From: a virus
Taxonomy: Duplodnaviria; Heunggongvirae; Uroviricota; Caudoviricetes
IMG/VR virus record: IMGVR_UViG_3300029604_000306
DNA length: 64,000 nucleotides
Reading direction: 5' to 3' (one strand)
Shown here: positions 144 to 61,152 of the stretch, piece after piece
Layout of the letters: every line of letters begins with the position of its first letter
How positions within the stretch are numbered: position 1 is the stretch's first letter
Translations under genes and position numbers: made by a program
Notes under the pieces: model-generated
Database searches by the model: none
Told to the model about the DNA's origin: nothing
What the model saw: only the letters and a program-made list of their open reading frames with translations

Positions 144-152
144 GGCATATTG
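144..152 (+). promoter_or_regulatory. conserved GCATATT(A/G) promoter box P1
   Basis: ggcatattg lies ~37 nt upstream of the ATG at 189. This is one of ≥27 copies of the box in the window. Confidence 0.5.
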
Positions 153-188
153 AGAAAAGAAGAAAACAAAAAAAAGGAGACGTAAAAA

Positions 189-371
189 ATGATAAAACGA
201 GTACGGCTGGATTACAAGCCGGTAGCAAAGAGAACAAGCGAAAAGACGGCATTTGTGGTGTCAACTGAACATGTGGCAGCGGTAAATAGAAGCATAGAAA
301 AGAAATTGAAAAAAAATAAGAGAGAACGAAGAGAGAGCGAAAAAGAGGCGGAAAAATATATTGTAAGATGA
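189..371 (+). CDS. hypothetical small basic protein (60 aa)
   Basis: ORF with an aaaaggaga RBS and its own box and terminator. Lys/Arg/Glu-rich. Confidence 0.5.
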   Translation: MIKRVRLDYKPVAKRTSEKTAFVVSTEHVAAVNRSIEKKLKKNKRERRESEKEAEKYIVR

Positions 372-377
372 GTTGAT

Positions 378-402
378 GCCTGTGCTTGTAGGCGTTTTTT
401 TT
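378..402 (+). terminator. rho-independent terminator
   Basis: gcctgtgcttgtaggc hairpin followed by T8. Confidence 0.55.
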
Positions 403-417
403 GCCTCCAAAAATCCC

Positions 418-425
418 GCATATTA
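418..425 (+). promoter_or_regulatory. GCATATTA box P2
   Basis: cccgcatattaac lies ~36 nt upstream of the ATG at 461. Confidence 0.5.
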
Positions 426-460
426 ACTATACAACAAAAACAAGAAAAGGAGCAAAAACA

Positions 461-856
461 ATGATTGAAAATCCAAAAATCGGCCAAAAAGTTTGGTTTG
501 TAGAACATTGGAGCCAGTGCATCCACAGTGCAAAAATTACGGCACTTGGCGAAACAGAAGTTTCTGTACGAGACCCGAAGAAATATCCATATGCAGATAT
601 TGAATGGGATGATGGTGGAAACAGCGGCTGTCTGCTGAAAGACTTGTATACTTCGAGAGAAGAACTTCAAAAAGAATTAAAAAAAGAAGAAGAAGAGAAG
701 ATTGCCGAAATCAAGGCTAAAATCAAAGATGCAAATGACCTGGTGGCGTTTATGTATGACCACTGCGTGGCCTGTGCGGAGGAGTATACTGATTGGACGG
801 CGAGAAGAGCAGTTAAGGAAATCGCGAAGGAAATGCTTGGACTAGATTTGGACTAG
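461..856 (+). CDS. hypothetical protein (131 aa)
   Basis: In-frame ATG at 461 with an aaaaggagc RBS. The annotated 401 start would fall inside the promoter box. Confidence 0.55.
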   Translation: MIENPKIGQKVWFVEHWSQCIHSAKITALGETEVSVRDPKKYPYADIEWDDGGNSGCLLKDLYTSREELQKELKKEEEEKIAEIKAKIKDANDLVAFMYDHCVACAEEYTDWTARRAVKEIAKEMLGLDLD

Positions 857-984
857 ATTTGGGATTGCAAGAAAAAGAGATGGAAATCGGCTTTGCCGGT
901 TTCCTTTTTTTGTGTGTAGAGTGAAGTGGAATGGAAGAAAAAGAGATAAAGAATGAGAGCGGGAATATACTAACCGGTCAAGCC

Positions 985-1230
985 GGAATGAAGGTTACGG
1001 GCTGGCGGGAGGTTGTGTGGGCTGGTATGAAAAGATATGCGGTGAAAGGCTGTTGGCCGGCTGGCGCCGGGAGGGAAGTAGTAATTACCGGAAAGTGTAG
1101 CGCTCTGTAAAGAATCAAGCCGGAAAGGTGTTGGCCGGCTGTGACCGGAAAGGAGTTTACCGGCTGGCGCGGAAGCCTGGCGCGGTGTGTTTGCGGGGCG
1201 CGAAGCACCGCATATATTCCCGGTTTCAAT
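985..1230 (+). repeat. GC-rich cluster of degenerate direct repeats (ggccggctg…ccggaaagg)
   Basis: About 60% GC in an AT-rich context. It carries 3-4 repeats of GKTGTTGGCCGGCTG-N-CCGG(G/A)A(A/G)GG and a terminal hairpin gcggtgt…caccgc. The ORFs called here on the - strand are probably spurious. Confidence 0.4.
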
Positions 1231-1243
1231 GCTGACAAATTTC

Positions 1244-1252
1244 GGCATATTG
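1244..1252 (+). promoter_or_regulatory. GCATATTG box P3
   Basis: ttcggcatattgg lies upstream of the ATG at 1289. Confidence 0.5.
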
Positions 1253-1288
1253 GATATATAAAAATCAACAAGAAAGGGAGTAAAAAAA

Positions 1289-3058
1289 ATGAAAAAAAGA
1301 ATTGAAGAAGATGATGTGATTTATACCATTGATAAAAACAGCGGTGACTGTATTGATATTGATGTGAAACCAGGTGTTGAAGAAGTAAGCTTCAATGCTT
1401 CGTTTGGTCGTGAATATCTGCTTGGTGACTGTAAAAAGGTATTTCCTGACGTCAAGAAAATCGTGATTGATTACAGTGTATATGATATTGATATTCCCAA
1501 TACATTATTTCCAAATGTGAAAGAGGTGAAATGTAGCAGCTGGTACGGAAAATACATAAAAAGCGGAAGCTTGCTTCTAAGAAATGACAACGGCCAGATT
1601 TTGACAAACGTTTTTGGTAAAAAGGAAGGCGAGACCATAGACCTGAAATATGTAACCAAGATTGATGATGACGCTTTCTCTGGATGTATGGCTACAAAAA
1701 TCATTAATTCAGGAAGTGTTACATCATGTGCAGAATATGCATTCAGAAATTCAGCAATTGGAGATTTAGAACCTGAACCGGCTGGAGCAGTTATTGCCGG
1801 GTCTATTCTTGTTAATATCGATGAAACTTCTGAAAATATTATTCTTCCTGACAAAAGAGTTTCACTGACGGCAATGCGAGACGGAATTAATTTTGATAAT
1901 GTTAAAAGCATTACAGCGAACCGAGCTCAGACTGTAATTAATCTGCGGTATAAGCTGCCAGTTGGCATAAAGATTATTCTAAAAGATAAATCTTATATTA
2001 CAGACGAGCAGCTGTCAGGGTGGAGTCCTTTTCCAATTTTGGAATTAACTGAAGAAAATCCGTATTATTCTACGAAGGATGGATGCCTTCTATCAAAAGA
2101 TGGGTTGGTTTTAGTTAAATATCCATCAGCTATTTCTGGAACAGTACATATTCCTGATGGAATTGAAACTATTACATCATGTGCATTCATCCTCAGCGAG
2201 GCTGAGGAGATATATTTTCCTGATTCGCTGAGGGTATTGATGCCGAAATGTTTCTGGCTGTGTAATAAATTACAAAAAGTAGATTTTGGACATGGCATTG
2301 AGGAAATAGGCATTGGACATGATTGCAGGTTGTTTATGCAATGCAGCATGCTTCATGAGATTGAAATTCCGTCGCAGGTTAGAATAATTGGAGAAAGTGC
2401 ATTTCTTGGAACAGCAATCAGCAAAGTGACTTTTCATGAAGGACTGACGCAAATTATGGATTATGCGTTCAAGCAGAGTTGTATTAAGGAGGTTACACTG
2501 CCGGCATCGTTAAAATATATCGGAAGACAAAGCTTTCCTGGCATGGATAGCGTCACACTGTCATCGGATGACATGCCTTATGGTATCGCAGAAGCAATAA
2601 CGTCAAATACGATACCAGATAACAGCCCTATATATATTAAAATCAAAAAGCCAGCTGCAACGGTTTTCATGCCAAGATATATTGTTACAGCAGATGCTAT
2701 CGCATTAGACACACGGCTTGCAATCCCGTCATTCAGAGAAAAATGCGAAGAATTACTGTATGATTATGGAATGCAGCCGGAAATCAAGTGGAAGACTGCA
2801 ATAAAAACAATGAAAGAATGCCCGAATGATGCAGTTAAAACATATCTCAGAAGAGTCAGTAAGAACATTATCGCAATGTACATGGAATTAAATGATGAGA
2901 CTGGATTGATTGATTTTATCAAGCTTGGTATCATGACACCAAAAGCATTAGATGATACTTACAAAAAAGCGAAAGAAAAGGGCTTCACAACCGTGATGGC
3001 GTACATCTGCGAAGCACAGAAAGACACGAAAGGAAACAACTCATCATTTTCACTTTAA
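1289..3058 (+). CDS. BspA-type leucine-rich-repeat (LRR_5) protein, 589 aa
   Basis: Repeated I-P-x-x-V-x-x-I-G-x-x-A-F-x-x-C-x-x-L segments (e.g. IPDGIETITSCAF, IPSQVRIIGESAFLG, LPASLKYIGRQSF) typical of Clostridia/Treponema BspA-like LRRs. It has an RBS, a box and a terminator. Confidence 0.6.
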   Translation: MKKRIEEDDVIYTIDKNSGDCIDIDVKPGVEEVSFNASFGREYLLGDCKKVFPDVKKIVIDYSVYDIDIPNTLFPNVKEVKCSSWYGKYIKSGSLLLRNDNGQILTNVFGKKEGETIDLKYVTKIDDDAFSGCMATKIINSGSVTSCAEYAFRNSAIGDLEPEPAGAVIAGSILVNIDETSENIILPDKRVSLTAMRDGINFDNVKSITANRAQTVINLRYKLPVGIKIILKDKSYITDEQLSGWSPFPILELTEENPYYSTKDGCLLSKDGLVLVKYPSAISGTVHIPDGIETITSCAFILSEAEEIYFPDSLRVLMPKCFWLCNKLQKVDFGHGIEEIGIGHDCRLFMQCSMLHEIEIPSQVRIIGESAFLGTAISKVTFHEGLTQIMDYAFKQSCIKEVTLPASLKYIGRQSFPGMDSVTLSSDDMPYGIAEAITSNTIPDNSPIYIKIKKPAATVFMPRYIVTADAIALDTRLAIPSFREKCEELLYDYGMQPEIKWKTAIKTMKECPNDAVKTYLRRVSKNIIAMYMELNDETGLIDFIKLGIMTPKALDDTYKKAKEKGFTTVMAYICEAQKDTKGNNSSFSL

Positions 3059-3069
3059 TTTTTAAGTCT

Positions 3070-3097
3070 GGCCGGAATTTTTCCGGCCGTTTTTTTC
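3070..3097 (+). terminator. rho-independent terminator
   Basis: ggccggaatttttccggcc hairpin followed by T8. Confidence 0.65.
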
Positions 3098-3116
3098 TTT
3101 GTCGGCAGAAACTTGA

Positions 3117-3124
3117 CATATTGG
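3117..3124 (+). promoter_or_regulatory. CATATTG box P4 (variant with TTGACA)
   Basis: cttgacatattgggtatataaaa lies upstream of 3163. Confidence 0.45.
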
Positions 3125-3162
3125 GTATATAAAAAATAAAAAGAAAAGGAGAGGCAAAAAAA

Positions 3163-3435
3163 ATGAGCCGCAATAGAGATGAAAAGTATATACATAAAAA
3201 CAAATTGGAAACTGAACCAGAAAGAAAAAAGAAATTCGGAAAAGAATTTGCTGAAATTCCGAAAGGTAAGCATTATGTGGAGGAGCTGGAACCGCTGATT
3301 GGTGCAGTGATTGTTCTGGAATGTGATGATTGGGTGTTTATCCACGGAGAGCTTGGCGGTATGCCGTGCGAGAAGCTACTGCTGAAATCTGTGAAGCTGG
3401 TCAAGTGTCCGGCAAGCAGAGGAGTTGAAAATTAA
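3163..3435 (+). CDS. hypothetical protein (90 aa)
   Basis: aaaaggagagg RBS, own box and terminator. Confidence 0.5.
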   Translation: MSRNRDEKYIHKNKLETEPERKKKFGKEFAEIPKGKHYVEELEPLIGAVIVLECDDWVFIHGELGGMPCEKLLLKSVKLVKCPASRGVEN

Positions 3436-3588
3436 GTCGTCGCATTCTTGTGACTTTAGACGGCTCGTTTTTTTTGAGTACATAAAAATATCGTTTACGA
3501 CATTTTATTTCTCTACATTTCGGTGTAGAGAAATTTTTTATTTATATTATTTTTTTTCGCAAAAAACCGTCTCGCTCCTAATTTTTTC

Positions 3589-3597
3589 GGCATATTA
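3589..3597 (+). promoter_or_regulatory. GGCATATTA box P5
   Basis: ttttcggcatattaaaag lies upstream of 3634. Confidence 0.5.
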
Positions 3598-3633
3598 AAA
3601 GTATAAGAAATTTACAGAAAGGAGATGTACGAT

Positions 3634-3891
3634 ATGGCAAACTCAAACAGGAAGAAAGCCCGTAAATTACAGGCAGCCAAGAAAGCGAACGCCGCCGAAA
3701 GAGAGAAGGCTGCTAAGAAGGTAAAGCCTGCCGAAGAAAAACCGATAAAGTACACTATCACAGCAGAACAACAGGCTGACGGTACTTTTGAGTTTCACGG
3801 AGGCAAAGGCGGATTCAATATCATTAAGCAGAAGAATAAAGTATTAGAGCCTTACGGAAAACATTATGTGATTTTGGTGTTGGCAGTATGA
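3634..3891 (+). CDS. hypothetical small basic protein (85 aa)
   Basis: An aaaggaga RBS is correctly spaced to the ATG at 3634. The annotated 3625 ATG abuts the SD. Confidence 0.5.
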   Translation: MANSNRKKARKLQAAKKANAAEREKAAKKVKPAEEKPIKYTITAEQQADGTFEFHGGKGGFNIIKQKNKVLEPYGKHYVILVLAV

Positions 3892-4090
3892 CTTGGGAAG
3901 GTCAGAACTATTTAGAGTCAGTTAGAGATAATACAAGATGGGGAAAAATAAAAAAAATAGCAAAAGAGAAAGGAATTCCTTTAATGTTTAATACAGTTAT
4001 CGATATTTCAAAAGAGCTTATTATAGCAGCGCTGTAAAAGAAGTATAAAACAAAAAGCGCTTAATACTTAAGACAGGAGGCAAAAAAAAG

Positions 4091-4351
4091 ATGAAAAGAA
4101 ATTGGGCACTGATTAATTCCATCGTTAAAACTATCGCGGAAAGCGATAAAGATATTTTTGGAGTTAATGATTTTAAATCTGCTGAGAACAGCGAAGAAGA
4201 AGTTAAGTATACCCTGAAACTGATGCTGGACAGAGGACTTGTTTTCGATGAAACAACCCGATACGGTGTTGTGCAAGTTGGGCAGCTGACCTGGATGGGG
4301 CAGAATTATTATGAAGATAAAGACCATCAGAAGGCATCCGAAAGGCTTTAA
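4091..4351 (+). CDS. hypothetical protein (86 aa)
   Basis: gacaggaggc RBS, and a terminator follows at ~4360-4395. Confidence 0.5.
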   Translation: MKRNWALINSIVKTIAESDKDIFGVNDFKSAENSEEEVKYTLKLMLDRGLVFDETTRYGVVQVGQLTWMGQNYYEDKDHQKASERL

Positions 4352-4427
4352 GAAAAAATCTCACGCCTGCAGCTTTTGCTGCGGGCTTTTTCTTTGCTGG
4401 CAGATGTGTCGTTTATCTCTTCGTTTT

Positions 4428-4435
4428 GCATATTA
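4428..4435 (+). promoter_or_regulatory. GCATATTA box P6
   Basis: gttttgcatattagcc lies upstream of 4480. Confidence 0.5.
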
Positions 4436-4479
4436 GCCTTAAGCGAAAAAAAATCCGCAAAAAAATAAAAAGGAGGAAT

Positions 4480-4674
4480 ATGAATGGAAATAAGAAAAAT
4501 ATTGGAAAAAGAGCTAAGCAAAAGCGGCGGCTGGGCGGAACTGGTAAAGGTTCCGCCAGAGAGAAGGCCGAGCAAGGAATCGTTGGACAGGCTGAACCGG
4601 GATGTGGAAGGGCTGGTGAGAATGACGGGGAATCAGGTTGCGAAGTGAGGAGAGAAATAGAAAAAATGGAATAA
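4480..4674 (+). CDS. hypothetical small basic protein (64 aa)
   Basis: aaaaggaggaatATG, in frame with the annotated 4426 ORF. Confidence 0.45.
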   Translation: MNGNKKNIGKRAKQKRRLGGTGKGSAREKAEQGIVGQAEPGCGRAGENDGESGCEVRREIEKME

Positions 4675-4703
4675 AAAAGACAGAGCGAATGGGAAACCCG
4701 CGC

Positions 4704-4732
4704 TTGACTTTGATAGCGCGGGGGAGTATGAT
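4704..4732 (+). promoter_or_regulatory. sigma-A-type promoter (TTGACT-17-TATGAT)
   Basis: Near-consensus -35 and -10 elements with a 17-nt spacer, reading rightwards. Confidence 0.55.
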
Positions 4733-4738
4733 ATATAT

Positions 4739-4834
4739 AAATATAGGAAGCCGTGCAAACGGTCTATCTCCAATATTACTATGATGTAATTTTATTTCTT
4801 CCGTCGTCTATTGGCAGTAGTCGACGGTTTTTTC
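4739..4834 (+). ncRNA. candidate ~95-nt antisense sRNA (type I antitoxin-like)
   Basis: It runs from the predicted TSS after the promoter to the hairpin ccgtcgtcta…tagtcgacgg plus T6 at 4801-4834. No ORF or RBS. It overlaps the 3' end of the minus-strand peptide gene. Confidence 0.35.
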
Positions 4835-4935
4835 TTACGCATCTTGTAACGCTCAATTTCAATTTTCCATATAAAACGGATACACTGAAACAAAAAAGCT
4901 AACGCAGTTAACTCAAGAGCGAGTTCTTTGTACAT
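4792..4935 (-). CDS. 47-aa hydrophobic/basic peptide (candidate type I toxin)
   Basis: rc aaggagg RBS with an ATG 8 nt downstream. MYKELALELTALAFLFQCIRFIWKI (TM-like) followed by the basic tail RYKMRKKKPSTTANRRRKK. Confidence 0.4.
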   Translation of the reverse strand: MYKELALELTALAFLFQCIRFIWKIEIERYKMRKKKPSTTANRRRKK

Positions 4936-5047
4936 ACGCATCACCCTCCTTTGTAAAAATAAAGCTGGGAGGATGAACCTCCTCAGCGATGTTGCTGCTT
5001 TGGAGGAGATAAACCGCCTGCCGTAATTCCGGCTTCCTATGCATAAC

Positions 5048-5076
5048 AGTATAGCAAGAAATTCCTGTATAAGCAA
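5048..5076 (-). promoter_or_regulatory. sigma-A-type promoter on the minus strand (TTGCTT-17-TATACT)
   Basis: rc of aagcaa…agtata. It drives the peptide gene at 4935-4792. Confidence 0.45.
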
Positions 5077-5107
5077 ATGTTTTTCAGGAATCTTTAAACT
5101 GGCTTAT

Positions 5108-5150
5108 GCCCGCCGTCTAGCTCCAGTAGACGGCGGTTTCTTTTTTTTCT
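5108..5150 (+). terminator. terminator hairpin homologous to the one at 4801-4834
   Basis: cgccgtctagctccagtagacggcgg followed by tttcttttttttc. It is a direct-repeat homologue of the 4801 hairpin, so the two flank the cassette. Confidence 0.5.
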
Positions 5151-5185
5151 AAAACTTTCTGAATTTTCAGTAGAGAAAATTTTCC

Positions 5186-5193
5186 GCATATTA
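5186..5193 (+). promoter_or_regulatory. GCATATTA box P7
   Basis: ttttccgcatattag lies upstream of 5234. Confidence 0.5.
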
Positions 5194-5233
5194 GATGTAT
5201 CTAGCAATACCATTCAAGAAAGGAAAAAAAGAT

Positions 5234-5413
5234 ATGAACGAACATGAATTTTGGAAAGAACGCCGCCACCTTGAGGAAATGCCGTTTGATAAGCGTTTTG
5301 ATGTGGACGGAAACTCTGAACTTTGCCATGCAACCGGATATGAGGTCTTTGACGGCGAGGACTGGTGGGATGAGTTCGTGGATTCTAACGGAGATTTCCA
5401 ATACGGAAGATAA
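5234..5413 (+). CDS. hypothetical small acidic protein (59 aa)
   Basis: gaaaggaaaaaaagatATG. D/E- and W-rich. Own terminator at ~5430-5462. Confidence 0.5.
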   Translation: MNEHEFWKERRHLEEMPFDKRFDVDGNSELCHATGYEVFDGEDWWDEFVDSNGDFQYGR

Positions 5414-5489
5414 CTCCGTGAAGCAATTTTGCCTGCAGAAATTCTGCAGGCTCTTTTTTCGCAAATTTTTCTTCTCTCCAAAAAATCCC

Positions 5490-5497
5490 GCATATTA
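5490..5497 (+). promoter_or_regulatory. GCATATTA box P8
   Basis: aaatcccgcatattatg lies upstream of 5526. Confidence 0.5.
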
Positions 5498-5525
5498 TGT
5501 ATAGAAAAAACAAAGGAGACAAAAA

Positions 5526-5906
5526 ATGCCTGAAAAAATACTAGTCTTGGATAACTCAACTTTTTTCGTAATCTGCCACGCAGTAGCAGAAGACGAGAAA
5601 GATATACGAAATAATGCACAGAATCTGGATTGGTTTCTGTCAGACGACAAAAATGCAGCAAGCCAGGAGATTCTCTCAGACCACACGTGTGAGACTATTG
5701 TTCTGGATGCAGACTGGATTGCTAAGCATGCCGAAAACAAATATCTTGGACTTCAATACCGTCAGAACGGTAACACACACACCGAAACAGTATGTTTTCT
5801 GTCCAGCGATGTCACAGCTTTGCTGAAAAGAAATTCTTTTGCTAAGCTGAATATATGCGACATACACGGCAACACAAAGGATGCATACACCCTGAAAAGG
5901 AGATGA
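5526..5906 (+). CDS. hypothetical protein (126 aa)
   Basis: caaaggagac RBS. Confidence 0.55.
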   Translation: MPEKILVLDNSTFFVICHAVAEDEKDIRNNAQNLDWFLSDDKNAASQEILSDHTCETIVLDADWIAKHAENKYLGLQYRQNGNTHTETVCFLSSDVTALLKRNSFAKLNICDIHGNTKDAYTLKRR

Positions 5907-5912
5907 TTCAAA

Positions 5913-6668
5913 ATGCTTAAAAAGAAGCTCAAAACAAAAACAAAAACCAAACCAAAAAGAAGTCTAAAAACAAAATCCTCCATCCGGAAACGGCCTTCGC
6001 GCAAGCAGCGCCGCAATAAGAAGATGTACGAAGATGACTCTCTGCTGAATATCTGGAATGGACATGGCTTCGCAATGTGTGGCCTGGGCAAGAAATCCAT
6101 GTTTCTAGCAAAAGTCAAACATTTTTTCAAATGCATCAAATGGTCAAAGCAAAGAGCAAAAAGAGGTTTTGCAGACTACGATGTCTGGAACATGTACGGA
6201 TATCTTGAAGAACTGATGCCGGCGATGCTGCAGCATCTGAAAGATAACCGGATGGGAAGCCCGGCGATGCTCGGCCAAAACTATACTGATGAGCATGGCA
6301 TAATGCAGAACGATGCTTGCCACAAAGAATGGGACAAAATTCTTGACCGGATGATTTTTCTCTGGCGGGAACTTGACGAAGAGACATGCAGTGAGAAAAA
6401 TAAATACGAAAAAGAATATTCAAAAGCCTCTGATGAATTCTTTGATAAATACGGTTTCTTCGGGGAAGGCCTGGAAACAGAAGAAGAAAAAGAAAAAGCA
6501 AAAAAGACAGGCTCCAGGAGAGTGCATTTTATGAGTGAACTGCCGGAGTACGAAGAAATCAGCAGACTGCATATGGAAGAGGAAAAGAGGCTGGTGGAGT
6601 ATAGAGAAAAGTGTAAGGATGAGGTGTTTGACTTAATGAAGAAATATTTCTTCGCGTTGTGGGATTGA
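5913..6668 (+). CDS. hypothetical protein with a Lys/Arg-rich N-terminus (251 aa)
   Basis: aaaaggagatg RBS. Translationally close to the previous gene. Terminator at ~6677-6708. Confidence 0.55.
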   Translation: MLKKKLKTKTKTKPKRSLKTKSSIRKRPSRKQRRNKKMYEDDSLLNIWNGHGFAMCGLGKKSMFLAKVKHFFKCIKWSKQRAKRGFADYDVWNMYGYLEELMPAMLQHLKDNRMGSPAMLGQNYTDEHGIMQNDACHKEWDKILDRMIFLWRELDEETCSEKNKYEKEYSKASDEFFDKYGFFGEGLETEEEKEKAKKTGSRRVHFMSELPEYEEISRLHMEEEKRLVEYREKCKDEVFDLMKKYFFALWD

Positions 6669-6726
6669 GATTTAATGGGCGCTGCCTTCGGTGGCGCTTG
6701 TTTTTTTTGTAAAAATAGAAATCCTT

Positions 6727-6734
6727 CATATTAT
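6727..6734 (+). promoter_or_regulatory. (T)CATATTA box P9
   Basis: TTGTAAaaatagaaatccttCATATTA after the terminator T-run. Confidence 0.45.
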
Positions 6735-6783
6735 TATAGATATATGATATTATTTATATAAAAAAAGAAAGGAGAAAAAAGAA

Positions 6784-7002
6784 ATGGTAAAATACATTCT
6801 AATGCCGGAAGAGGCTATTCAGAAAATAAGAAAAGGAGACAAATTTTTTGTGGATGGCGAACTCAATCCGAATGCTGCCAGAATCATAACTGCGGCACAT
6901 AATGCATATTTTTGGGTAGATGACAACAATATGCCACATTGGACTGTGGACGCAGAGGGGGGCGGATGCTATGGATATGGAGAAATCTGCCAGCAGGTTT
7001 AA
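6784..7002 (+). CDS. hypothetical protein (72 aa)
   Basis: agaaaggagaaaaaagaaATG. Terminator at 7011-7042. Confidence 0.5.
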   Translation: MVKYILMPEEAIQKIRKGDKFFVDGELNPNAARIITAAHNAYFWVDDNNMPHWTVDAEGGGCYGYGEICQQV

Positions 7003-7058
7003 GTTTTTTGATACAGCCAGAAATTTTGGCTGTATTTTTTTTGTAAAAATGGAGAATT

Positions 7059-7067
7059 GGCATATTA
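7059..7067 (+). promoter_or_regulatory. GGCATATTA box P10
   Basis: TTGTAAaaatggagaattGGCATATTA. Confidence 0.5.
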
Positions 7068-7110
7068 AGAATGAAAATTTTTATTGAATCAGCAAAGAAA
7101 GGAAAATGAT

Positions 7111-11303: not shown

Positions 11304-11331
11304 TAAATATAAAAAAGGAGGAGGAAAAGAA

Positions 11332-54100: not shown

Positions 54101-57100
54101 AATCTATCAAAAAAAAGGACGAAACGAAAGTTATTGAAATCACAGTACCGTCAGGCTCAGGTCAGACACATACTGTACGAGGTACTGTGTCCGGAGCTGC
54201 AGCTGTAACTGCAGTAGCAGCCGCGTTAGCGGCAAGAGAAGCTGCGAAGGCCACCTCTGATGCCGCAAAGACTGCTACAGACAAAGCGGAAGGCATGGTG
54301 ATGCTGAAAGATACATCAATCATGTCGGCCAGCGAACTTGCTGCATATGCCAGTGCAGTGAACAGTGCGCAGGCAGCAACGCAGATAAACGGAAAACAAA
54401 TCGCCGATTCCTATGCTTTGGCAGGTCAGGCTGATGTAGAAACGATAAAGATAAATGTAGAGCAGGCTCTTGCGAATGCGAGAGAGATAGCAGCGGGGAC
54501 TCGTTCCGGATTGAACGTTCCAGGCGTTACATCTGGCCCAGTGGGACCAACCTCATCTGGCGCAACACAGAATTTTAATATCACGAGACCGTCTATACAT
54601 ACACTGGGAATTTCAGGCGTCGTAAAGAACTCAAATTTCACAGACGTTGGAATGTTTGTCCTAAAAGAAGGAAATCAGGTAACTATATCCAGAAATGGAA
54701 AATCAAAAAGATACACAGTCCGTTCTGACGGGACTATCAGAATAGATGGAATTGTATTGAACGTATATTCAGTAGACAAAGACAGAGCTTTTGTTGGTTG
54801 GAAAAACGCGGCTGTATATGGCGGCAAGATTTATACGGCTACAGGCACTGTCCTTGATATAAGTACGGATGGAAGCATAGGAACGACCAAAACGTTGGCT
54901 GGCCTGGAATTCCATATTAAAAGAGATGTTAAGGTCAATGCAAAACAAATGACAATGGCGATGACAATAGCCCCAGCATTAAACCAGCCTATTACAGACG
55001 CAGATTTTGTGAAAGTTGGAGATAAGTTTATATCAAACAAAGTAACAGAATCGTATAGTGGACTTTTGTACCAGAAAGCATTAAACAAAGGCAAAGTCTC
55101 TCAGCTTATTTTTAAACAAAAAATGGCAATGCATTCAGTCTTTCGAGCACAGCTGCTTGCAGGCGCAGCAGCTAACATGAAGTCGATTGATTTGAAATTA
55201 GACCTAAATACGCTGGTTGCAAATTACGATAAAATATTGACATCAATCAGTGGAAACAGCAAGCAGTTTTATCAAATGAATGTGTTTTTGGAAACACGCT
55301 ATTTGAGCGATATTGAACGTCAGTATCTGTTTGACGCAAAGGCAAAACTTAAGCACCTTGGTCTTACTGAAAATACAGATACATTAAAAGAACTTCTGGC
55401 TGGCGGCGGATTGTCCCCAGAAGCAGCAAGCGCAATAACGGATTACCTGAATGTATATGAAAATACAAGAGAAAAAATTATACGAAAAGGTGTGCTTGGG
55501 GACCAGAGCATAGGCGATTTCAAAGTGGAAAGAGCGTTTTATGCTGCTGCGCTGCCATATGTGCTTCAGGCAAGGGGACTTCCGTCAGATAAAAAGGCGC
55601 TAAAAAAATTATTAAAAGCAGGAACAACTTCAAAAGAAACGAAAGAGTTGATAAGAAATGTATTTAAACTGCAAAGAAGGATGTTTTTGCTTAATTTGAC
55701 AGAAACAACATTAACGGCATATGCCAAAGGTGCTGTCAAAGCGGTTAAAAATGGATACCGAAAAATAAAATCATTGGCTAATAGATATATGGGCGATGAT
55801 TATACGATGCGAGGACTCCTCATGATGGAGTCAATCATTGTTGGCTCTGCTATGAAAGCGTATCGTACATCAAGAAAAATAAAATGGATGAGAGAGAACG
55901 CTGGAAGGTTGCTAAATTCCTCAATCAGGCTTGGAAAGTCAATAGGAAATGCTGCGGTCGCAGGATATAGAGGTGCAAAAGCAGGTATTCATGCAGTTCA
56001 TATGGGCGGAAGAGCGGCGAGAAAAGGTTTCCAGTATCTTAGGAAAAACGGACTTAAAAAAACGCTAAAAAAAGGTGTAAAAAAATTACGGATGAAAGGC
56101 ACGAAAGTTGTCAGAAAAGGCGTTTTAAAAGTCGCCAAAGTAGCGCAAAAGGCCGCGATTAAAGCAATCCAGGCTGCGATAAAGTTGATACAGACATTGA
56201 TTTCAGCATTAGTAGCAGCATTAGGACCTATAATCATAGCATTGATTATTGTATTGGCAATCATCCTTTGCATTATTTCATATGTGAAGAACGCAGGAAA
56301 TGAAGTCTATTATGACGCAGGCGATGAAGACACTACTGAAGTTTTACAAGAAATGGTTGATGTCTTAACCTTGTGTCACAATTCGTTCAGAAGTGAATTA
56401 TCGAATCATTTTGGTGGAACGTCAAGCACAGGCTCGGCGTCTGGTACAGATGGCTCAACGATGAATGCACCACAGCTACAAAAGGGTGATAGTTCTAAAG
56501 TTCAGGGGTTATATGATGTGACTGAGGGGACCTGGTGGAATTATGAGTTTACATACCAATATATTCATGGTAATTGGGCTTCCGGAACACGGCAACAGGC
56601 GTTGGATAACAAGGTAACAGTTGAAGGCAATGGAAATTACGCTGTCGTCGACCAGAACGGAACAAAGATGTATATGGCGGCTTTTGGCTCGTATTGGGGA
56701 AAAGTAGGAGATGTCCTTAAAGTGGAATTTAATAACGAATTCACAATAGGCAGTCAGCCTGCATCCAATACTATGTACATTATTATTGCGGATGAAAAGG
56801 CTTGGAAAGATACTGGTTATCCAGCAGAGCAAGAAGGAATATATGGACATCACTTAGGAAGCCACCGAGATTTTGCAGAATTTATAGGTTATGGCTCTAA
56901 ACCTGCAGGATTGAATGGAAATGGATTGATTCCTACTACTGCAACAAATATGGGAAGTATTTTGGATGGAACATTTGATTCATCAACGATAGGAACTGGT
57001 TCAGCTGCTTCGTCGGTAAGCGTAAATGCCGATATCCTGTATCGTCAGGAAATAGACCAGGATGTTTATCGCGACATTTTAAATAGGGATAAAAACATAT

Positions 57101-58485
57101 ACTACACTTTTCCGGAAGAGCAAAAAGTACCAGATGGTATTACCCCAACACCTACTCCGGAAGGATATGTAAAAGCAGATGCAAAAGGTGAAGTGTATGG
57201 ATTCTATAATAATAATCAAGAGCTGATTTCTATGGTAATGGCTATGTTTGATTTTGAGGCAAGTTCTAGTACTTCAACAAAAAGCACAATCATTAGCAAA
57301 AAAGATGCTTCCGGCTTTGACGAGGCAAAAACAAACGACACATATCAAAAAGGTATGACGGATAAAGAAGTTGATGATAAATGGAAGCTGATAGAATACC
57401 TGAATGAAAAAGGCTTAGACCTGACAAATTACAAAGCAGGCGGCTATGACGATTTGAGATATTCGGCTTTGATTGGTCTTTTTAATGCTTCACATATTAT
57501 CACGGGAACAGCCGTTAAGCAGTACCATGCAGGCCCAGACGGAACAATCAATCCAGTATATAACGATGATGGAAGGATTGTTGGTCAAAATAATACCGAT
57601 GGTATGTCTTATCAAGTGCCGGTTATGGAAACGAAGACAAGACAAGTCAGAAACGAACACGGAGATATCCAAATCGAATACTACACCGGATATAAAACGG
57701 ACTCGGATGGAAACATCGTTTATGAAACAAAGTATGCACCGTGTCCGGGCCATACAAAGTACAGTGGAGCAGTTATTACCCTGCATTTTGATAGTCTGTT
57801 AAATCTTGATGACTGGTGGGAGAAAAACATCTATGGAGTAGATGATTTTGATAAGGAAAACCCTAACTATGAAAGCAGTGACGCAAGTGCAGATACATAT
57901 AGAGCTAAAGAGAATACGCTAAAACGTACAATCCAGTATATTAAAAAGCCGGATTATTATAAGAGTCTGAGTGGAACATGCTCAGAAGGAGAAAACTCTA
58001 CCACAGACAGTTTCAATCCTGGAACGTGGGATGGAGACCAAGCAAAAGTTGCTAAAGAAGTATATGAATTCCTGACAACAAAAATGTCGAGAAAATTAAC
58101 CTCTGAACAGGCAATGGGAGTATTGGTAAATATCTATAGAGAATGCTCATTCAATTATACAGAAGAAGAAATTGGCGGTACTGGATATGGCTTAACTCAA
58201 TGGTCGTTTGGACGCAGAACAAAACTTGTTCAATGGTGTAATGCAAATGGATATCAGTACAATACGCTTGAAGGCCAGCTAAAACGTTTGGAATGCGAAT
58301 TTACGGAAGATACGAGTGATTGGTCCCCGAGCGGAGTAGAAGGATTCTATGCATGTACGACTGCAAGAGAAGCAGGCGAATTCTTTATTACGAATTACGA
58401 AAGGCCTGATGCACAATGTAAAGCGCAGCGTTTAGCCGAGATGGACTCAGATATCGCTACTATTCAGGCAATGCTGCAGTCGTAA
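51163..58485 (+). CDS. giant membrane-anchored protein (~2440 aa): disordered charged N-terminal half with SYExxGQRE repeats, a TM segment, and a C-terminal lysozyme-like (phage-tail-lysozyme-type) domain
   Basis: aagggaggtg RBS. Six or more degenerate repeats (Y[IV]xDSYE[KQM][AS]GQRE). TM at ~aa 1690 (LGPIIIALIIVLAIILCIISYV). The C-terminus NIYRECSFNYTEEEIGGTGYGLTQWSFGRRTKL resembles E…S…GxGLxQW lysozyme-like catalytic regions. Family-B copy B4 is embedded at ~51998-52078. Confidence 0.6.
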   Translation: MLPKEEYISLLANLFQRGLCLDMIDIDGKQDSPDISDEERINFKAADEALSRVDLDELFDNAEILEIPDKYPEFYEYLRELQLERQEDGHGERTIEDVSADEEVEEGEEEPGPEEPHGLSTKDQVLKNIVGGEHTGNQRDSEKYRKGDEMRARLDEERREALSRAAEQERYDNEHRMPLESKLEDERGEAIARAEEQQRQREALRQKELAERPETTVNITSIHDKSKSADGVTNVVKGNIPDESTKHNESKTQYYEPDTFNEERGIHDRQESAHESNTSILTSHEGLNPRSASGHEREARTINKSSDLYQQMQAKDNDTLSDAQDRSHKNDKRDERPEPEKKDNNRSATNEYSSRITNDYAEKDSHITEDINRTGPQVFEPKRENVEQISGHEELNTKSAQDVSHVVKGDTYSDFFGQDRPEVRDERNRADVHNESRYQSSRGSREDSVGAGVLDRKKAEDTSQYHSEAGSEAAVDNTRRTESENKYISDSYEKSGQRDTGETYKRHQYDGGYGGTDKENRLYEAENNHTNRNTERVGPNQGSEYNEGFIYKKDAGINKHAESDGSIVEKRREHDTEGYRSTQGFDKPNSSEPYKASSIPQHEKESVYDGNAISNPDSGNASNGTAQYKREASESKKYINDSYEQAGQRESADIQSHKDTGEDTYASFKPKAYDATKNEDQSSTFVARNERRAYDATANSTDSIARKENGDSHSVLNFGADKRPSAEPASENAKRYVGSSYEMAGQREAERKDRGYENLERQGLADKHTGSVQPPFSDGIGEVEKKYEKSSTRENSASEVTSRRQSAVDDLSKSERVQADNIVRRPISQMPASHTASNQYPGLDGDSHQPSEAKTMTHDQRQDVGNHRDEKPGASAIEEVLRNRAANQENQDANRASGGINERKQTYSRDSYESSGQAPVDEKRKEPYGPGETYSYVGRKDGQADRKVAENRVLKSDKTDVVYPQKRDSSVSSESKNGLQSIKKKDETKVIEITVPSGSGQTHTVRGTVSGAAAVTAVAAALAAREAAKATSDAAKTATDKAEGMVMLKDTSIMSASELAAYASAVNSAQAATQINGKQIADSYALAGQADVETIKINVEQALANAREIAAGTRSGLNVPGVTSGPVGPTSSGATQNFNITRPSIHTLGISGVVKNSNFTDVGMFVLKEGNQVTISRNGKSKRYTVRSDGTIRIDGIVLNVYSVDKDRAFVGWKNAAVYGGKIYTATGTVLDISTDGSIGTTKTLAGLEFHIKRDVKVNAKQMTMAMTIAPALNQPITDADFVKVGDKFISNKVTESYSGLLYQKALNKGKVSQLIFKQKMAMHSVFRAQLLAGAAANMKSIDLKLDLNTLVANYDKILTSISGNSKQFYQMNVFLETRYLSDIERQYLFDAKAKLKHLGLTENTDTLKELLAGGGLSPEAASAITDYLNVYENTREKIIRKGVLGDQSIGDFKVERAFYAAALPYVLQARGLPSDKKALKKLLKAGTTSKETKELIRNVFKLQRRMFLLNLTETTLTAYAKGAVKAVKNGYRKIKSLANRYMGDDYTMRGLLMMESIIVGSAMKAYRTSRKIKWMRENAGRLLNSSIRLGKSIGNAAVAGYRGAKAGIHAVHMGGRAARKGFQYLRKNGLKKTLKKGVKKLRMKGTKVVRKGVLKVAKVAQKAAIKAIQAAIKLIQTLISALVAALGPIIIALIIVLAIILCIISYVKNAGNEVYYDAGDEDTTEVLQEMVDVLTLCHNSFRSELSNHFGGTSSTGSASGTDGSTMNAPQLQKGDSSKVQGLYDVTEGTWWNYEFTYQYIHGNWASGTRQQALDNKVTVEGNGNYAVVDQNGTKMYMAAFGSYWGKVGDVLKVEFNNEFTIGSQPASNTMYIIIADEKAWKDTGYPAEQEGIYGHHLGSHRDFAEFIGYGSKPAGLNGNGLIPTTATNMGSILDGTFDSSTIGTGSAASSVSVNADILYRQEIDQDVYRDILNRDKNIYYTFPEEQKVPDGITPTPTPEGYVKADAKGEVYGFYNNNQELISMVMAMFDFEASSSTSTKSTIISKKDASGFDEAKTNDTYQKGMTDKEVDDKWKLIEYLNEKGLDLTNYKAGGYDDLRYSALIGLFNASHIITGTAVKQYHAGPDGTINPVYNDDGRIVGQNNTDGMSYQVPVMETKTRQVRNEHGDIQIEYYTGYKTDSDGNIVYETKYAPCPGHTKYSGAVITLHFDSLLNLDDWWEKNIYGVDDFDKENPNYESSDASADTYRAKENTLKRTIQYIKKPDYYKSLSGTCSEGENSTTDSFNPGTWDGDQAKVAKEVYEFLTTKMSRKLTSEQAMGVLVNIYRECSFNYTEEEIGGTGYGLTQWSFGRRTKLVQWCNANGYQYNTLEGQLKRLECEFTEDTSDWSPSGVEGFYACTTAREAGEFFITNYERPDAQCKAQRLAEMDSDIATIQAMLQS
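51998..52078 (+). repeat. family-B repeat, copy B4 (3' half, in-frame inside the giant CDS)
   Basis: ttttaacttcgcacgagggtttgaatccacgttcagcg…, translated …ILTSHEGLNPRSASGHE…. Confidence 0.5.
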
Positions 58486-58596
58486 TATCGTGTATGTTCG
58501 ACGCATGATTGTGGTACGGGCGGAGCACTCCGCCCGTCATTGCGTCAGGCAAGGAAACCGCAAGCTGTGTTTGTAAGCGGTAGGAGGATGATAAAA

Positions 58597-60369
58597 TTGA
58601 GAAAAAAACAAAAACAAAATAAACATAGAGAACGCTTAATTGCGGGAGTCGTGGCCATAATCCTTGTTTTAGCACTTATACTCACAAGTATTGCCGCGTC
58701 TCGCGTACCGGTTTATGCGGCTGTGGCCTCTACTACAGGAACTTCAACCGTCAAATCAAAAGCAAATAAATCCGGGCAAAAAAAAGCGACCCCAACACCA
58801 ACGACAATGCCAAAAAAAGAAAAAAAAGCATTGGAAAAAATAATGAAAGGATTATCTACGTTTCATTATAAAGCATACGAATGGGCGGGATTAACCGTCG
58901 GAGGCATGCCGTTCGCTTTGGCGGAGGGGATTTATAATATATCTGATTTAAATACTGATGGAACAAAAACGCCAATATTTTGGAAAAATGAAGATACAGA
59001 ATCAGAAATGAAAGATTTTTACTCTTCTACGAATTGGAATGAATTTGAAGGAATGTATGAAACAGTTGAGCTGAGTAATAGCTGCGAAGCGGTTTTGTCT
59101 GATGAGGTTGCAAAGTATGAAGACCTGATGGACAAAGCGGCGGAAGATAATGGTTTTAAAACGTATAAGGAGATATTTAAGGCAATTGCGCAAGCAAGGT
59201 TTAATGAGCATAAAGATGAGTATGAAGCCATGAAAAAAGATATAAAAGGAGAGGGCAGCGATAAGTTTGATTTATTTCATATCAATGGTTCATGGCTGGC
59301 AGATACAAGCAACGGAGACGTTACTCCGGTAAGCAGCAAAGCAAATGTCTCGCCGAAAGACGAATATGGAGAAGATGAAAGGCTAAACCTAGCAAATAAG
59401 AAAAAAGAGGCTGGAAAATACACAGTGCAGGAATCCATAGATGCCGCGGCAAAGGCCTTTGCGAATATGGTGGAAGAAGCAGTCTATCCATCACCTTATA
59501 ATACTGATTCATTGATATGTGTTGTCCAGGGATTTGAATTTGGTGGAAGTTCTAAAGCAATAAAAAATCAATATAATAGGTCACCACTAAAACTTGATGA
59601 AGAAACCGGGTTTGTTACATTTACGGACTATTGTAACAACAAGGCGTCAAGTAGTAAAAACCAATCCGCAGAAAAAGAAGAGGTGGATTATGACTCTATC
59701 ATTGAGGCTTATGCAAAAGTAATCGCCCATGGTGAAGAAAGAGCTAATGCTGATGATGAAAATGGCAAATATAAATATTCGGACCAGAAGTTTTATCAAA
59801 AGGTATTTGAAAATTATAAATGCTCTGGCGGTGGTTCTGGAAACCTGGACATGGGACAATTACCGGATGATATGAAAGAGATACTGAAAAAGTGTATGGC
59901 GACATGGGATAGTAAAGTGACAAAAGAAAGGCGTGAGATTATACAGCAGGGAGTTATGCTGTATGGCGTGACGTATTCGATGGACTATGCCAGAACTGAC
60001 ATTGATAATCCAAAGTATCTAGATTGCTCGTCTTTCGTTGGACAAAGTTATTGGAGGGCTGGTGTTCTTGATAAAAGTGCAGCTAGTTGGTGTACCGGAG
60101 ATTTTTGCGACGCGGGTAAAGGGTTTAAGCAAATAGATGCTGCTCAATTGATACCAGGTGACTTTGGACAAAAGACATGGACACCTGGAGGTAGCGGTGG
60201 CAATGAACATATTGGAATATATCTTGGAACGGTCGATGGGACTATGTACTGGCTTCACTGTACAAGCTGGTCTCCAGAAGCACCAAATACAAAATATGCA
60301 CCAGGAAAAGGCGTTGTTATAAATGACTATAAAGGTTTTAAAGCGTATGGACAGTACCCAGGACTATGA
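58597..60369 (+). CDS. secreted NlpC/P60-family peptidoglycan endopeptidase (cell-wall hydrolase)
   Basis: Signal anchor. The C-terminal YLDCSSFVGQSYWRAG (Cys motif) plus HIGIYLG…WLHCTS (His) form the NlpC/P60 catalytic core. taggagga RBS with a TTG at 58597 (or the ATG at 58588). Confidence 0.75.
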   Translation: MRKKQKQNKHRERLIAGVVAIILVLALILTSIAASRVPVYAAVASTTGTSTVKSKANKSGQKKATPTPTTMPKKEKKALEKIMKGLSTFHYKAYEWAGLTVGGMPFALAEGIYNISDLNTDGTKTPIFWKNEDTESEMKDFYSSTNWNEFEGMYETVELSNSCEAVLSDEVAKYEDLMDKAAEDNGFKTYKEIFKAIAQARFNEHKDEYEAMKKDIKGEGSDKFDLFHINGSWLADTSNGDVTPVSSKANVSPKDEYGEDERLNLANKKKEAGKYTVQESIDAAAKAFANMVEEAVYPSPYNTDSLICVVQGFEFGGSSKAIKNQYNRSPLKLDEETGFVTFTDYCNNKASSSKNQSAEKEEVDYDSIIEAYAKVIAHGEERANADDENGKYKYSDQKFYQKVFENYKCSGGGSGNLDMGQLPDDMKEILKKCMATWDSKVTKERREIIQQGVMLYGVTYSMDYARTDIDNPKYLDCSSFVGQSYWRAGVLDKSAASWCTGDFCDAGKGFKQIDAAQLIPGDFGQKTWTPGGSGGNEHIGIYLGTVDGTMYWLHCTSWSPEAPNTKYAPGKGVVINDYKGFKAYGQYPGL

Positions 60370-60385
60370 TATGGAGGATAAATGT

Positions 60386-61060
60386 ATGAAATTAAAAAGA
60401 ATAGTGAGATTTAGTTTGATAATTGGATTTGTTGCCTTATTTTTCATACAATCAACGAATGTATTTGCAAACAGCAATGAAAGTGAAACAAGCGAAGAGG
60501 ATTTGAATGAAGATGATGAGTTACCAGATACTTTTTATCGTCCTAAATCAACTTTTACTTCTTCTTATGATTATGAAGAATATTGCAAAGAAATGTACCG
60601 ACATGGATATATGGATGAGAACTATAATTGGACACCAGCGGCTCAAAATTATATTGATAACATGAATGCTGAAACATTAGAAACACTTAATAAAGATGCC
60701 AAAGGAACGGTAGAACAGAGGGTTGCAGATGGCGAAATGAAACAAATAGACAATCCGTACATTTCATATGATGAATGGAAAAGGTTATCAGAAGAGAACA
60801 ACAAAAATAAAAATAGCAAAAACGAAAGCAACGCTGACACACAAACAGAAAGTGAATCTTCAAGCGAAGGCAATACTGAGATTTCAGAATCACCGTCTGA
60901 AGACGATAATACAATCACAGTAACGCCAGAAGAGGAGCAAGCAGAGAAGGAAGACGAAAAACCAAGTTCTCTTGCAAACCGCATAAAACTTGTGTTTATG
61001 GTATTATTAGCAGTAGGCATTGCACTTGTTACATATTCTATTTATAAAAAACAATTCTAA
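60386..61060 (+). CDS. hypothetical secreted acidic protein with a C-terminal TM (224 aa)
   Basis: atggaggata RBS. Signal peptide MKLKRIVRFSLIIGFVALFFIQSTNVFA. C-terminal LVFMVLLAVGIALVTYSIY. Confidence 0.55.
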   Translation: MKLKRIVRFSLIIGFVALFFIQSTNVFANSNESETSEEDLNEDDELPDTFYRPKSTFTSSYDYEEYCKEMYRHGYMDENYNWTPAAQNYIDNMNAETLETLNKDAKGTVEQRVADGEMKQIDNPYISYDEWKRLSEENNKNKNSKNESNADTQTESESSSEGNTEISESPSEDDNTITVTPEEEQAEKEDEKPSSLANRIKLVFMVLLAVGIALVTYSIYKKQF

Positions 61061-61070
61061 AAAAAGGAAA

Positions 61071-61103
61071 AGAGAGCCAAAAATATACGGCTCTTTTTTT
61101 TTG
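61071..61103 (+). terminator. rho-independent terminator
   Basis: agagagccaaaaatatacggctct followed by T9. Confidence 0.6.
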
Positions 61104-61144
61104 TATAAAAAAAATAAATCATATAACACTCTGCAATTTTTTCT

Positions 61145-61152
61145 GCATATTA
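61145..61152 (+). promoter_or_regulatory. GCATATTA box P27
   Basis: ttttctgcatattaaaag lies upstream of 61228. Confidence 0.5.

Follow-up and report, generated by a model that had tools for sequence, protein, structure and literature searches.

The stretch of DNA analysed here, hereafter the window, comprises 64,000 nt of the IMG/VR virus record IMGVR_UViG_3300029604_000306, in which a short sequence, GCATATTR (hereafter the box), recurs upstream of the genes and a sigma-70-family factor is encoded at 28483-29499. By annotation, the window encodes a VirD4/TraG coupling protein, TopB (topoisomerase III), a RecD2-like helicase, an FtsH-like protease, leucine-rich repeat (LRR) surface proteins and a 2440-aa gene product (51163-58485) with a lysozyme domain, in addition to a DnaN beta-clamp, a Band_7 protein, TnpB, SSB and a ParM-like protein. 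Searches of the window for tRNAs and Rfam families returned no matches. The combination of a coupling protein with partition and replication accessory genes, and the lack of housekeeping genes, are those of a conjugative plasmid, and the window is, judged by these genes, part of a giant conjugative megaplasmid-like element. A phage origin was rejected, since the gene content is conjugative and plasmid-like, and neither the nucleotide sequence of the window nor its sigma protein matched any record in the phage collection.

Distribution of the box

The window contained 24 exact copies of GCATATTR, compared with 6.65 ± 2.79 (maximum 17) in dinucleotide shuffles. When intergenic and coding DNA were separated by a rough gene model, in which 53 genes account for 86% of the window, 22 whole copies fell within the 8,700 nt of intergenic DNA, as against 0.73 in first-order Markov resamples (maximum 4, n = 500). 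The 55 kb of coding DNA held just 2 copies, one of which (5490) lies on the final codons of a gene. All 23 copies touching intergenic DNA were aimed at the next gene, and a start codon followed 19 copies at a distance of 35-104 nt, a group which box 5186 joins at 58 nt when gene 5244-5504 is used. Long leaders were found behind three boxes, namely 17933 (about 370-371 nt), 29956 (559 nt) and 12117 (167 nt). An unbiased analysis of 7-mer enrichment upstream of genes ranked GCATATT at the top, and a scan with a position weight matrix built from 23 sites gave 36 matches of at least 9 bits versus 4.55 in shuffles. With the addition of one-mismatch variants in the same context (ACATATT, TCATATT and GCATACT), about 31-32 credible boxes were obtained for about 53 genes. 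These and a few related sites, together with the genes or open reading frames (ORFs) that follow them, are as follows.

145-152 (+): box GCATATTG, 44 nt before gene 189-371, with a terminator upstream at 77-98
418-425 (+): box GCATATTA, before gene 461-856
1245-1252 (+): box GCATATTG, before 1289-3058, the gene of a 589-aa LRR (BspA-type) protein
3116-3123 (+): variant box ACATATTG, before gene 3163-3435
3590-3597 (+): box GCATATTA, before gene 3634-3891
4428-4435 (+): box GCATATTA, before gene 4480-4674
5186-5193 (+): box GCATATTA, before gene 5244-5504
5490-5497 (+): box GCATATTA, before genes 5526-5906 and 5913-6668
6726-6733 (+): variant box TCATATTA (TCATATTR), before gene 6784-7002, with TTGTAAAAA upstream
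7060-7067 (+): box GCATATTA, before gene 7111-7593, with TTGTAAAAA upstream
7682-7689 (+): box GCATATTA, before gene 7732-8631, with TTGTAAAAA upstream
8776-8783 (+): box GCATATTA, before the FtsH-like gene 8825-10648
11296-11303 (+): box GCATATTG, before gene 11332-12060
12117-12124 (+): variant box TCATATTG (TCATATTR), 167 nt before gene 12284-12658
13489-13496 (+): variant box GCATACTG (GCATACTR), before gene 13528-14910 (PG_binding_4)
14988-14995 (+): box-like GCATACTA, within the 5' part of ORF 14929-15501; uncertain
17933-17940 (+): box GCATATTA, followed by a leader of about 370 nt and the 1142-aa gene 18304-21732
22878-22885 (+): box GCATATTA, before the 622-aa gene 22937-24805; orthologous position kept in 4 lineages
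28164 (+): a second TCATATTG, 14 nt upstream of box 28178
28178-28185 (+): box GCATATTA, before the operon of a small ORF and the sigma gene
29956-29963 (+): box GCATATTG, with no ORF for 559 nt downstream
31354-31361 (+): variant box TCATATTG (TCATATTR), 118 nt before the Band_7 gene 31472-32536
32616-32623 (+): box GCATATTG, before the SSB gene 32695-33549
33604-33611 (+): variant box TCATATTA (TCATATTR), before the ORF ending at 34747
34799-34806 (+): variant box GCATACTA (GCATACTR), before gene 34930-35799
35902-35909 (+): box GCATATTA, before the DnaN-like gene 35965-37116
39102-39109 (-): box GCATATTA, in a TnpB insertion sequence, 41 nt before tnpB (39068-37467)
39957-39964 (-): box GCATATTA, before gene 39913-39233, back to back with box 40013
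40013-40020 (+): box GCATATTG, before gene 40048-41148 and the VirD4/TraG coupling protein gene 41138-43687
43785-43792 (+): box GCATATTG, before gene 43831-44082 and the TopB gene 44097-46745
46765-46772 (+): variant box GCATACTG (GCATACTR), before the RecD2-like helicase gene 46809-49004
50628-50635 (+): box GCATATTA, before gene 50732-51148 and the 2440-aa gene 51163-58485
61145-61152 (+): box GCATATTA, before the ParM-like gene 61228-62388

The box-like copy at 14988, which recurs in a sister plasmid (L033) at 17219, is uncertain and could be an internal promoter or a coding coincidence. Boxes 39957 (-) and 40013 (+), 56 nt apart, form a divergent pair between gene 39233-39913 and the operon ending with the VirD4 gene. 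TCATATT copies at 29586, 29712, 29750 and 37247 (-) were dropped as promoters because they belong to a dispersed repeat.

A terminator, consisting of a GC-rich hairpin and a T-tract, ended 2-50 nt upstream of 24 of the 32 boxes, giving terminator-promoter modules of the kind expected for insulation, and terminator-like sites were enriched in 1-20000 (40 versus 16.6 expected). A preliminary description of this DNA had listed at least 27 boxes, nearly one per gene and usually directly after a terminator, and had regarded almost every gene as an insulated monocistronic unit. All of its box coordinates were recovered within 1 nt, the offsets being due to the variable base that precedes GCATATT, and its count was a fair one. 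A ratio of one box per gene approximately holds for the first 12 kb and fails overall, with about 60% of the genes having their own box, and the link with terminators is usual, although a quarter of the boxes have none upstream. The monocistronic layout did not stand in view of these figures and of operons of 2-6 genes, for example 24868-28095, 44097-50328 and 51163-61060. Likewise, TTGTAAAAA, described as lying 15 nt upstream in several cases, was found at 3 boxes only (6726, 7060 and 7682), and begins 19 nt before the G of the box.

Around the box, stretches of 40-50 nt are 60-77% identical between some intergenic regions (families D4 and D6-D9), as would be expected if the copies were relics of one duplicated intergenic cassette, that is, a dispersed repeat, rather than independently selected sites. 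Beyond a 12-nt core, however, most copies share no similarity, and their enrichment, orientation and spacing to the start codon are those of a functional site. In diverged plasmids, moreover, orthologous regions keep the box only: across four diverged lineages, CATATTA, the ribosome-binding site and the ATG were the sole invariant elements of orthologous upstream regions. An origin of the copies in a single cassette is accordingly very improbable.

Anatomy of the putative promoter

Alignment of the sites extended the consensus to TTYnGCATATTR, followed by a T/purine step 5-6 nt downstream. The first alignment comprised 23 window sites chosen by GCATATTR alone, and in the numbering introduced below it showed T at -17 in 22 sites, T at -16 in 20 and C or T at -15 in all 23, together with an A/T-rich stretch further upstream and a T-A step 4-5 nt past the box. 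The second comprised 37 non-redundant promoters from seven lineages, and is uninformative for -17 to -15 because it was pre-selected on those positions. In this set, the putative +1, located 7 nt after CATATT, was a purine in 36 of 37 promoters, and -1 was T in 27.

These features suggested a sigma-70-type reading, in which the box would correspond to C-12 A-11 T-10 A-9 T-8 T-7 with a purine at -6, TTYnG would occupy -17 to -13, and the conserved purine would be the start point of transcription. [quoted passage not shown] No -35 hexamer emerged from the aligned sites. Positions near -34, -31 and -28 had slight base preferences and a subset of sites was CCGTnCG-like, too little for a defined element, and a specific -35 element was rejected. 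A-tracts were frequent near -42, where they might act as an UP element.

As the preliminary description had stated, the box lies outside the sigma-A -35/-10 consensus (TTGACA, 17 nt, TATAAT), having C rather than T at the presumed -12, no TGn and no -35 hexamer; matches to the sigma-A-type consensus occurred in the window at chance level (54 versus 49.2 expected). The box resembles extended -10 (TGn) promoters in that it is -10-dominant, has conserved bases just upstream and does not need a good -35. It differs from them in detail, since the extended -10 class has TG at -15/-14 and a T-first hexamer, whereas the box has TTYnG at -17 to -13, with C or T at -15, a variable -14 and a conserved G at -13, and a C-first hexamer.

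The location of the box between the terminator and the ribosome-binding site is one in which operators or processing sites can also lie, and the box might then be a site for a plasmid DNA-binding protein, such as a global repressor or a nucleoid-type protein, or might act at the RNA level, for example as a processing site in read-through transcripts. The box is, however, asymmetric and lacks dyad symmetry, which argues against a dimeric repressor site, and A-11, T-7 and the pyrimidine/purine start 7 nt downstream reproduce exactly the -10 geometry of the sigma-70 family. In addition, no other conserved promoter-like element was found between the strong terminators and the genes, which would therefore be promoterless if the box were not a promoter. 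A non-promoter role is thus quite improbable. Within a lineage, 2 of 108 box positions were variable (both at the degenerate -15/-14), compared with 3.9% of other intergenic sites; with few variable sites and low power, this difference is compatible with constraint and not significant, and so adds little in favour of the box. The existence, enrichment, geometry and conservation of the box are direct observations, and we conclude that the box is real and very probably a promoter.

The sigma factor, its relatives and other features of the window

The putative regulator of the box is encoded together with a small ORF behind box 28178.

28224-28520 (+): conserved 98-aa ORF, overlapping the sigma start codon; present in lineages L022 and L023 (35-51% identity)
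28483-29499 (+): sigma-70-family factor of 338 aa with sigma2, sigma3-like and sigma4 domains; His122 opposite Q437 of sigma70

The assignment of the latter to the sigma-70 family, already made in the preliminary description, was confirmed by a match to Pfam PF04542 (Sigma70_r2; E 9.2e-11, 41.8 bits versus a cut-off of 24). The generic model TIGR02937 matched residues 70-282 (52.4 bits versus a cut-off of 42.9), and PHROG 351, a phage sigma family, was matched at E 2e-16. Sequence matches in the PDB covered RpoH regions 2-3 and, on residues 187-265, SigH region 4, and the Pfam region 4 models remained below threshold for this protein. An AlphaFold2 model with a predicted local distance difference test score of 70 gave a Foldseek probability of 1.0 to full-length sigma-A, -S, -B and -28 chains. 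The WIR motif of the protein aligned to sigma70 region 2.3/2.4, and a helical segment at residues 140-186, between sigma2 and sigma4, aligned to region 3 of RpoH and RpoD. The plasmid sigma thus appears as a real but very divergent member of the sigma-70 family. Its predicted domains are a disordered N-terminus, sigma2, a sigma3-like domain, sigma4 and an acidic C-tail, the layout of the three central domains following from the profile, PDB and Foldseek matches. A two-domain extracytoplasmic function (ECF, group 4) sigma, a type of about 200 aa that lacks region 3, was ruled out by the length of 338 aa with a middle helical segment and by ECF subfamily scores far below the cut-offs. A search of 1.84 billion representatives returned 1093 sequences at E ≤ 1e-3, roughly 280 at E ≤ 1e-10 and only 19 at E ≤ 1e-30; the family is small and distinct. 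The acidic disordered tail (DDGNEDDDMYEEFDDMD...) occupies residues 303-338 (window 29389-29499) and is acidic in most aligned members; a C-tail of such strongly acidic character is unusual among sigma factors.

The overlap of the 98-aa ORF with the sigma start codon was kept in three lineages. Its product had no protein family match, and could be a partner of the sigma factor or an anti-sigma. The presence of box 28178 before this operon implies autoregulation with positive feedback, provided that the sigma factor reads the box. No sigma-A-type promoter was found upstream of the operon, and the candidate TTGCAA-16-CATATT at 28142-28169 was rejected, as it matches the consensus at 8 of 12 positions only.

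PLSDB contained no match to the element by DNA or, by tblastn, to its sigma protein, and no close relative was found among the 185,579 species representatives of GTDB, in which a single-protein scan gave nothing and a profile scan gave distant sigmas of 22-35% identity. An identical sigma protein was indexed in 1144 blocks of the collection searched, on human gut metagenome contigs of up to 378 kb, and the contigs of related lineages reach 382-428 kb. A syntenic sister plasmid in NCBI encodes an FtsH with 74% identity, and its protein names carry 'Ruminococcus sp. RTP21484sp1...'. A box-rich contig (L031) belongs to assembly GCA_040919145.1 of Ruminococcus sp., which offers the best clue to the host. 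A literature search turned up no account of the plasmid family or of the box; Inocle elements were rejected as its identity, since these are different (GC content 24-32%, oral Streptococcus).

In every relative found, the sigma factor was a core syntenic gene and boxes were present, over GC contents of 30-45%. The following lineages kept the boxes.

L042: sigma 80% identical, GC 30%, boxes and synteny kept
L023: sigma 73% identical, GC 31%, 7 exact boxes in 21 kb
L022: sigma 60% identical, GC 45%, boxes and synteny kept
L020/21: sigma 62% identical, boxes and synteny kept

Boxes were likewise present in the sister plasmids L033, L031 and L028. Their density on plasmid contigs was about 4-9 per 10 kb. 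The base at -13 was G in the window, L042, L033 and L031, mixed in L023, and T in L020/21 and L011, a pattern suggestive of co-variation in which the base shifts as the sigma factor diverges. L011 (2035-20312 of the Acetatifactor sp. metagenome-assembled genome contig JAZNMF010000127.1) is a distant conjugative element with a TraG P-loop ATPase and UvrD helicases. Its sigma is 29% identical to that of the plasmid, and TTTCTAT-CATATT-R precedes at least 9 of its genes.

The C at -12 provided a further link. In an hhalign alignment, FIAPWIRHVVSD of the plasmid sigma stood opposite YATWWIRQAITR of sigma70, so that His122 is the equivalent of Q437. Primary sigmas of other bacteria have Gln at this position, as the alignment showed for E. 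coli sigma70. His122 was shared without exception by 20 family members, and His is likewise found in the sigma of L011. For sigma70 itself, the effect of a T-to-C substitution at -12 is suppressed when Gln437 is replaced by His (Q437H; Waldburger et al., 1990, reviewed in PMC2613000). The combination of His122 in the plasmid sigma with C in the box parallels that case, and the pair is a candidate specificity determinant.

The box at 39102 (-) lies in a TnpB-only insertion sequence of 2085 bp (37191-39275, -), inserted at the 3' end of gene 39233-39913 and absent from a strain of the same plasmid (L003). The insertion sequence carries a plasmid-type GCATATTA promoter of its own. TnpB homologues of 61-63% identity in the sister plasmids L028 and L031 keep GCATATTA, which in L027 is mutated to GCATATGA. 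The adoption of the plasmid promoter class by a resident TnpB insertion sequence is notable.

Two comparison elements of similar GC content with related TnpB genes behaved differently, L041 having no box and L035 a box of different flavour. The latter, a 17.6-kb metagenome contig, is a gut mobile element with Bro-N, a PIF1 helicase, an integrase and a 665-aa ECF-like sigma; about 8 of its genes are preceded by a two-block box, CTTTGTT, 11-12 nt, C-CATATT-TA. In L022, genes for a Tn916-type integrase and DUF6462 (15069-18919) follow the backbone, with the degenerate boxes GCATCTTA and TCATACTG upstream.

On this evidence, we consider it probable, by a moderate measure, that the plasmid's own sigma factor reads the box. 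Several points weigh against this interpretation, most of which favour promoters read by a host sigma, either an unusual housekeeping factor or a sporulation-type factor with a CATA -10, the plasmid sigma then controlling something else or only a subset. Sporulation sigma-G, -K and -E promoters have CATA-type -10 elements, and CATATTA fits CATnnTA, the -10 consensus of Bacillus sigma-G. The -35 elements of sporulation promoters (GnATR, as in sigma-G promoters, or AC) are, however, without counterpart here, the gene content is not sporulation-related, and control of replication, partition and conjugation genes by a sporulation sigma would be biologically implausible. The CATATT core also occurs in L035, an unrelated element with a different, ECF-like sigma in the fetched stretch, and could reflect a common host factor. 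The loci compared, which came from GTDB scans and from FtsH and TnpB homologues, are plasmids and mobile elements only, and for this reason wide use of the box by the host is conceivable; yet L041, a mobile element of similar GC content, lacks the box. Insertion sequences often move between chromosome and plasmid, so that a box in the TnpB insertion sequence would suit a host sigma, but the related TnpB copies that carry the box are all in sister plasmids. Furthermore, C at -12 is disfavoured by primary sigmas with their Gln, whereas the plasmid sigma has the suppressing His, and the box is constant over relatives of 30-45% GC, a range suggestive of different hosts, its flank varying only in step with the plasmid sigma. 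Reading by a host sigma is therefore unlikely, though clearly the strongest competitor. Two further difficulties concern the plasmid sigma itself: it has a sigma4 domain, yet the promoters have no clear -35, and, if every unit depended on it, no route to its first synthesis after transfer would be apparent, as no sigma-A-type promoter was found upstream of its gene. Promoter function, the start site and the sigma factor as reader are all deduced from sequence. Of the element-specific regulon originally proposed, the promoter-like position of the box and the encoded sigma factor stood, together with a deduced link between them, and the insulated monocistronic layout did not.

Other features of the window are repeats and non-coding stretches. 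Dispersed repeats, D1/D5 (hairpin TCTGGTAACGAnTCCGGCAAAGCCGGCGAGTTATCA), D2 (81 nt) and D3 (61 nt), are mostly intergenic.

18023-18145, 25626-25706, 29586-29883, 34809-34899, 50279-50532, 51957-52037 and 62883-62965: repeats D1/D5, D2 and D3

Copies at 25626, 51957, 62883 and 62925 lie within called ORFs. Since a D1-type hairpin forms the right end of the TnpB insertion sequence (37247, -), these repeats may be solo insertion-sequence ends or omega-RNA-like modules. The leader 17941-18303 behind box 17933, which contains repeats D2 and D1 and is followed by the gene of the 1142-aa surface protein, may be structured. The 1 kb immediately following the sigma gene (29500-30514) has no convincing ORF, contains tandem repeats and box 29956, and could be a non-coding RNA or an origin-like region. 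Rfam gave no match in the repeats, long leaders or non-coding stretches. The best sigma-A-like match in the window (TTGACT, 17 nt, TATGAT) is at 4704-4732, within a gene-poor gap of 569 nt (4675-5243) that has a terminator at 5110-5136; it may drive a host-sigma-A-dependent small RNA or peptide.

Proposed programme and comparison with known systems

In the mechanism that we propose, CATATT would serve as the -10 hexamer, at -12 to -7, of a plasmid-specific promoter class, and TTYnG at -17 to -13 would act as an extended -10 element. The conserved purine 7 nt beyond the hexamer, with T just before it, would be the start point, and a specific -35 would be lacking. The plasmid sigma would steer the host core RNA polymerase to the boxes and, because its own operon lies behind a box, would amplify its own synthesis. 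Terminator-promoter modules would cut much of the plasmid into short, separately started units, and the resulting portable programme would span replication (DnaN, SSB), partition (ParM-like), conjugation (VirD4, TopB), the surface proteins and the TnpB insertion sequence.

Mobile-element sigma factors with a private promoter class are already known. The closest characterised system is that of pBS32 in Bacillus subtilis, whose plasmid-encoded sigma factor SigN (ZpdN) activates its own promoter and has targets essentially confined to the plasmid (Burton et al., 2019, PMC6751061). SigN promoters likewise differ from those of sigma-A and lie ahead of replication-type genes. Among remote homologues of the plasmid sigma, SigN is the best characterised (hhalign probability 91% at E 1e-6, with 27% identity in the 74 aligned columns, sigma2 only), although tblastn of the plasmid sigma against pBS32, which is in PLSDB, gave no match. 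The two differ in several respects. SigN has 199 aa, compared with 338 aa including the sigma3-like middle domain and the acidic tail, and carries Lys at the Q437-equivalent position, where the plasmid sigma has His. SigN promoters consist of two blocks (-35 TTTACGTTT, -10 AGATAWAA; PMC6751061), whereas the plasmid boxes are -10-dominant (TTYnGCATATTR) and not of the SigN type. SigN is toxic and held off by LexA via a sigma-A promoter (PMC6751061), a control for which no equivalent was found for the plasmid sigma.

Phage sigmas such as SPO1 gp28 and gp33/34 and T4 gp55 similarly let a mobile element redirect the host core polymerase to a private consensus. CATATT resembles the late -10 of SPO1 (GATATT), and the late promoters of T4 consist of a -10 alone. 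Temporal classes are absent here, however, one box serving all functional modules of a plasmid, and T4 gp55 is without sigma4, a domain which the plasmid sigma keeps. What is notable here is the megaplasmid scale, the prevalence in the gut, the match of His122 to C at -12 and the adoption of the box by TnpB. The match of His122 to C at -12 would be a natural counterpart of the classic Q437H specificity change of sigma70.

Taken as a whole, these elements may form a family of giant conjugative plasmids (200-430 kb contigs) in human gut Ruminococcus-like bacteria, with essentially orthogonal transcription by one sigma and one -10-dominant promoter ahead of practically all transcription units, those for replication, partition and transfer included, adoption of that promoter by TnpB insertion sequences and diverged pairs (CATATT core with other flanks) in Lachnospiraceae, a comprehensive picture to which we give somewhat less than even chances. 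Such a system would allow the plasmid to retain its pattern of expression as it passes between hosts that differ greatly in GC content. Reading of the boxes by the plasmid sigma, if true, would account for the shielding of the genes of so large a plasmid from host control. TTYnGCATATTR would offer a simple rule to annotate transcription units and to spot related elements in metagenomes, and the diverged sigma/box pairs of the Lachnospiraceae elements would point to a broad, so far undescribed class of sigma-autonomous plasmids. The plasmid would then provide a natural, portable sigma-promoter pair that runs a whole megaplasmid very common in human gut metagenomes, and that could serve as an orthogonal expression part for genetically difficult gut Clostridia.

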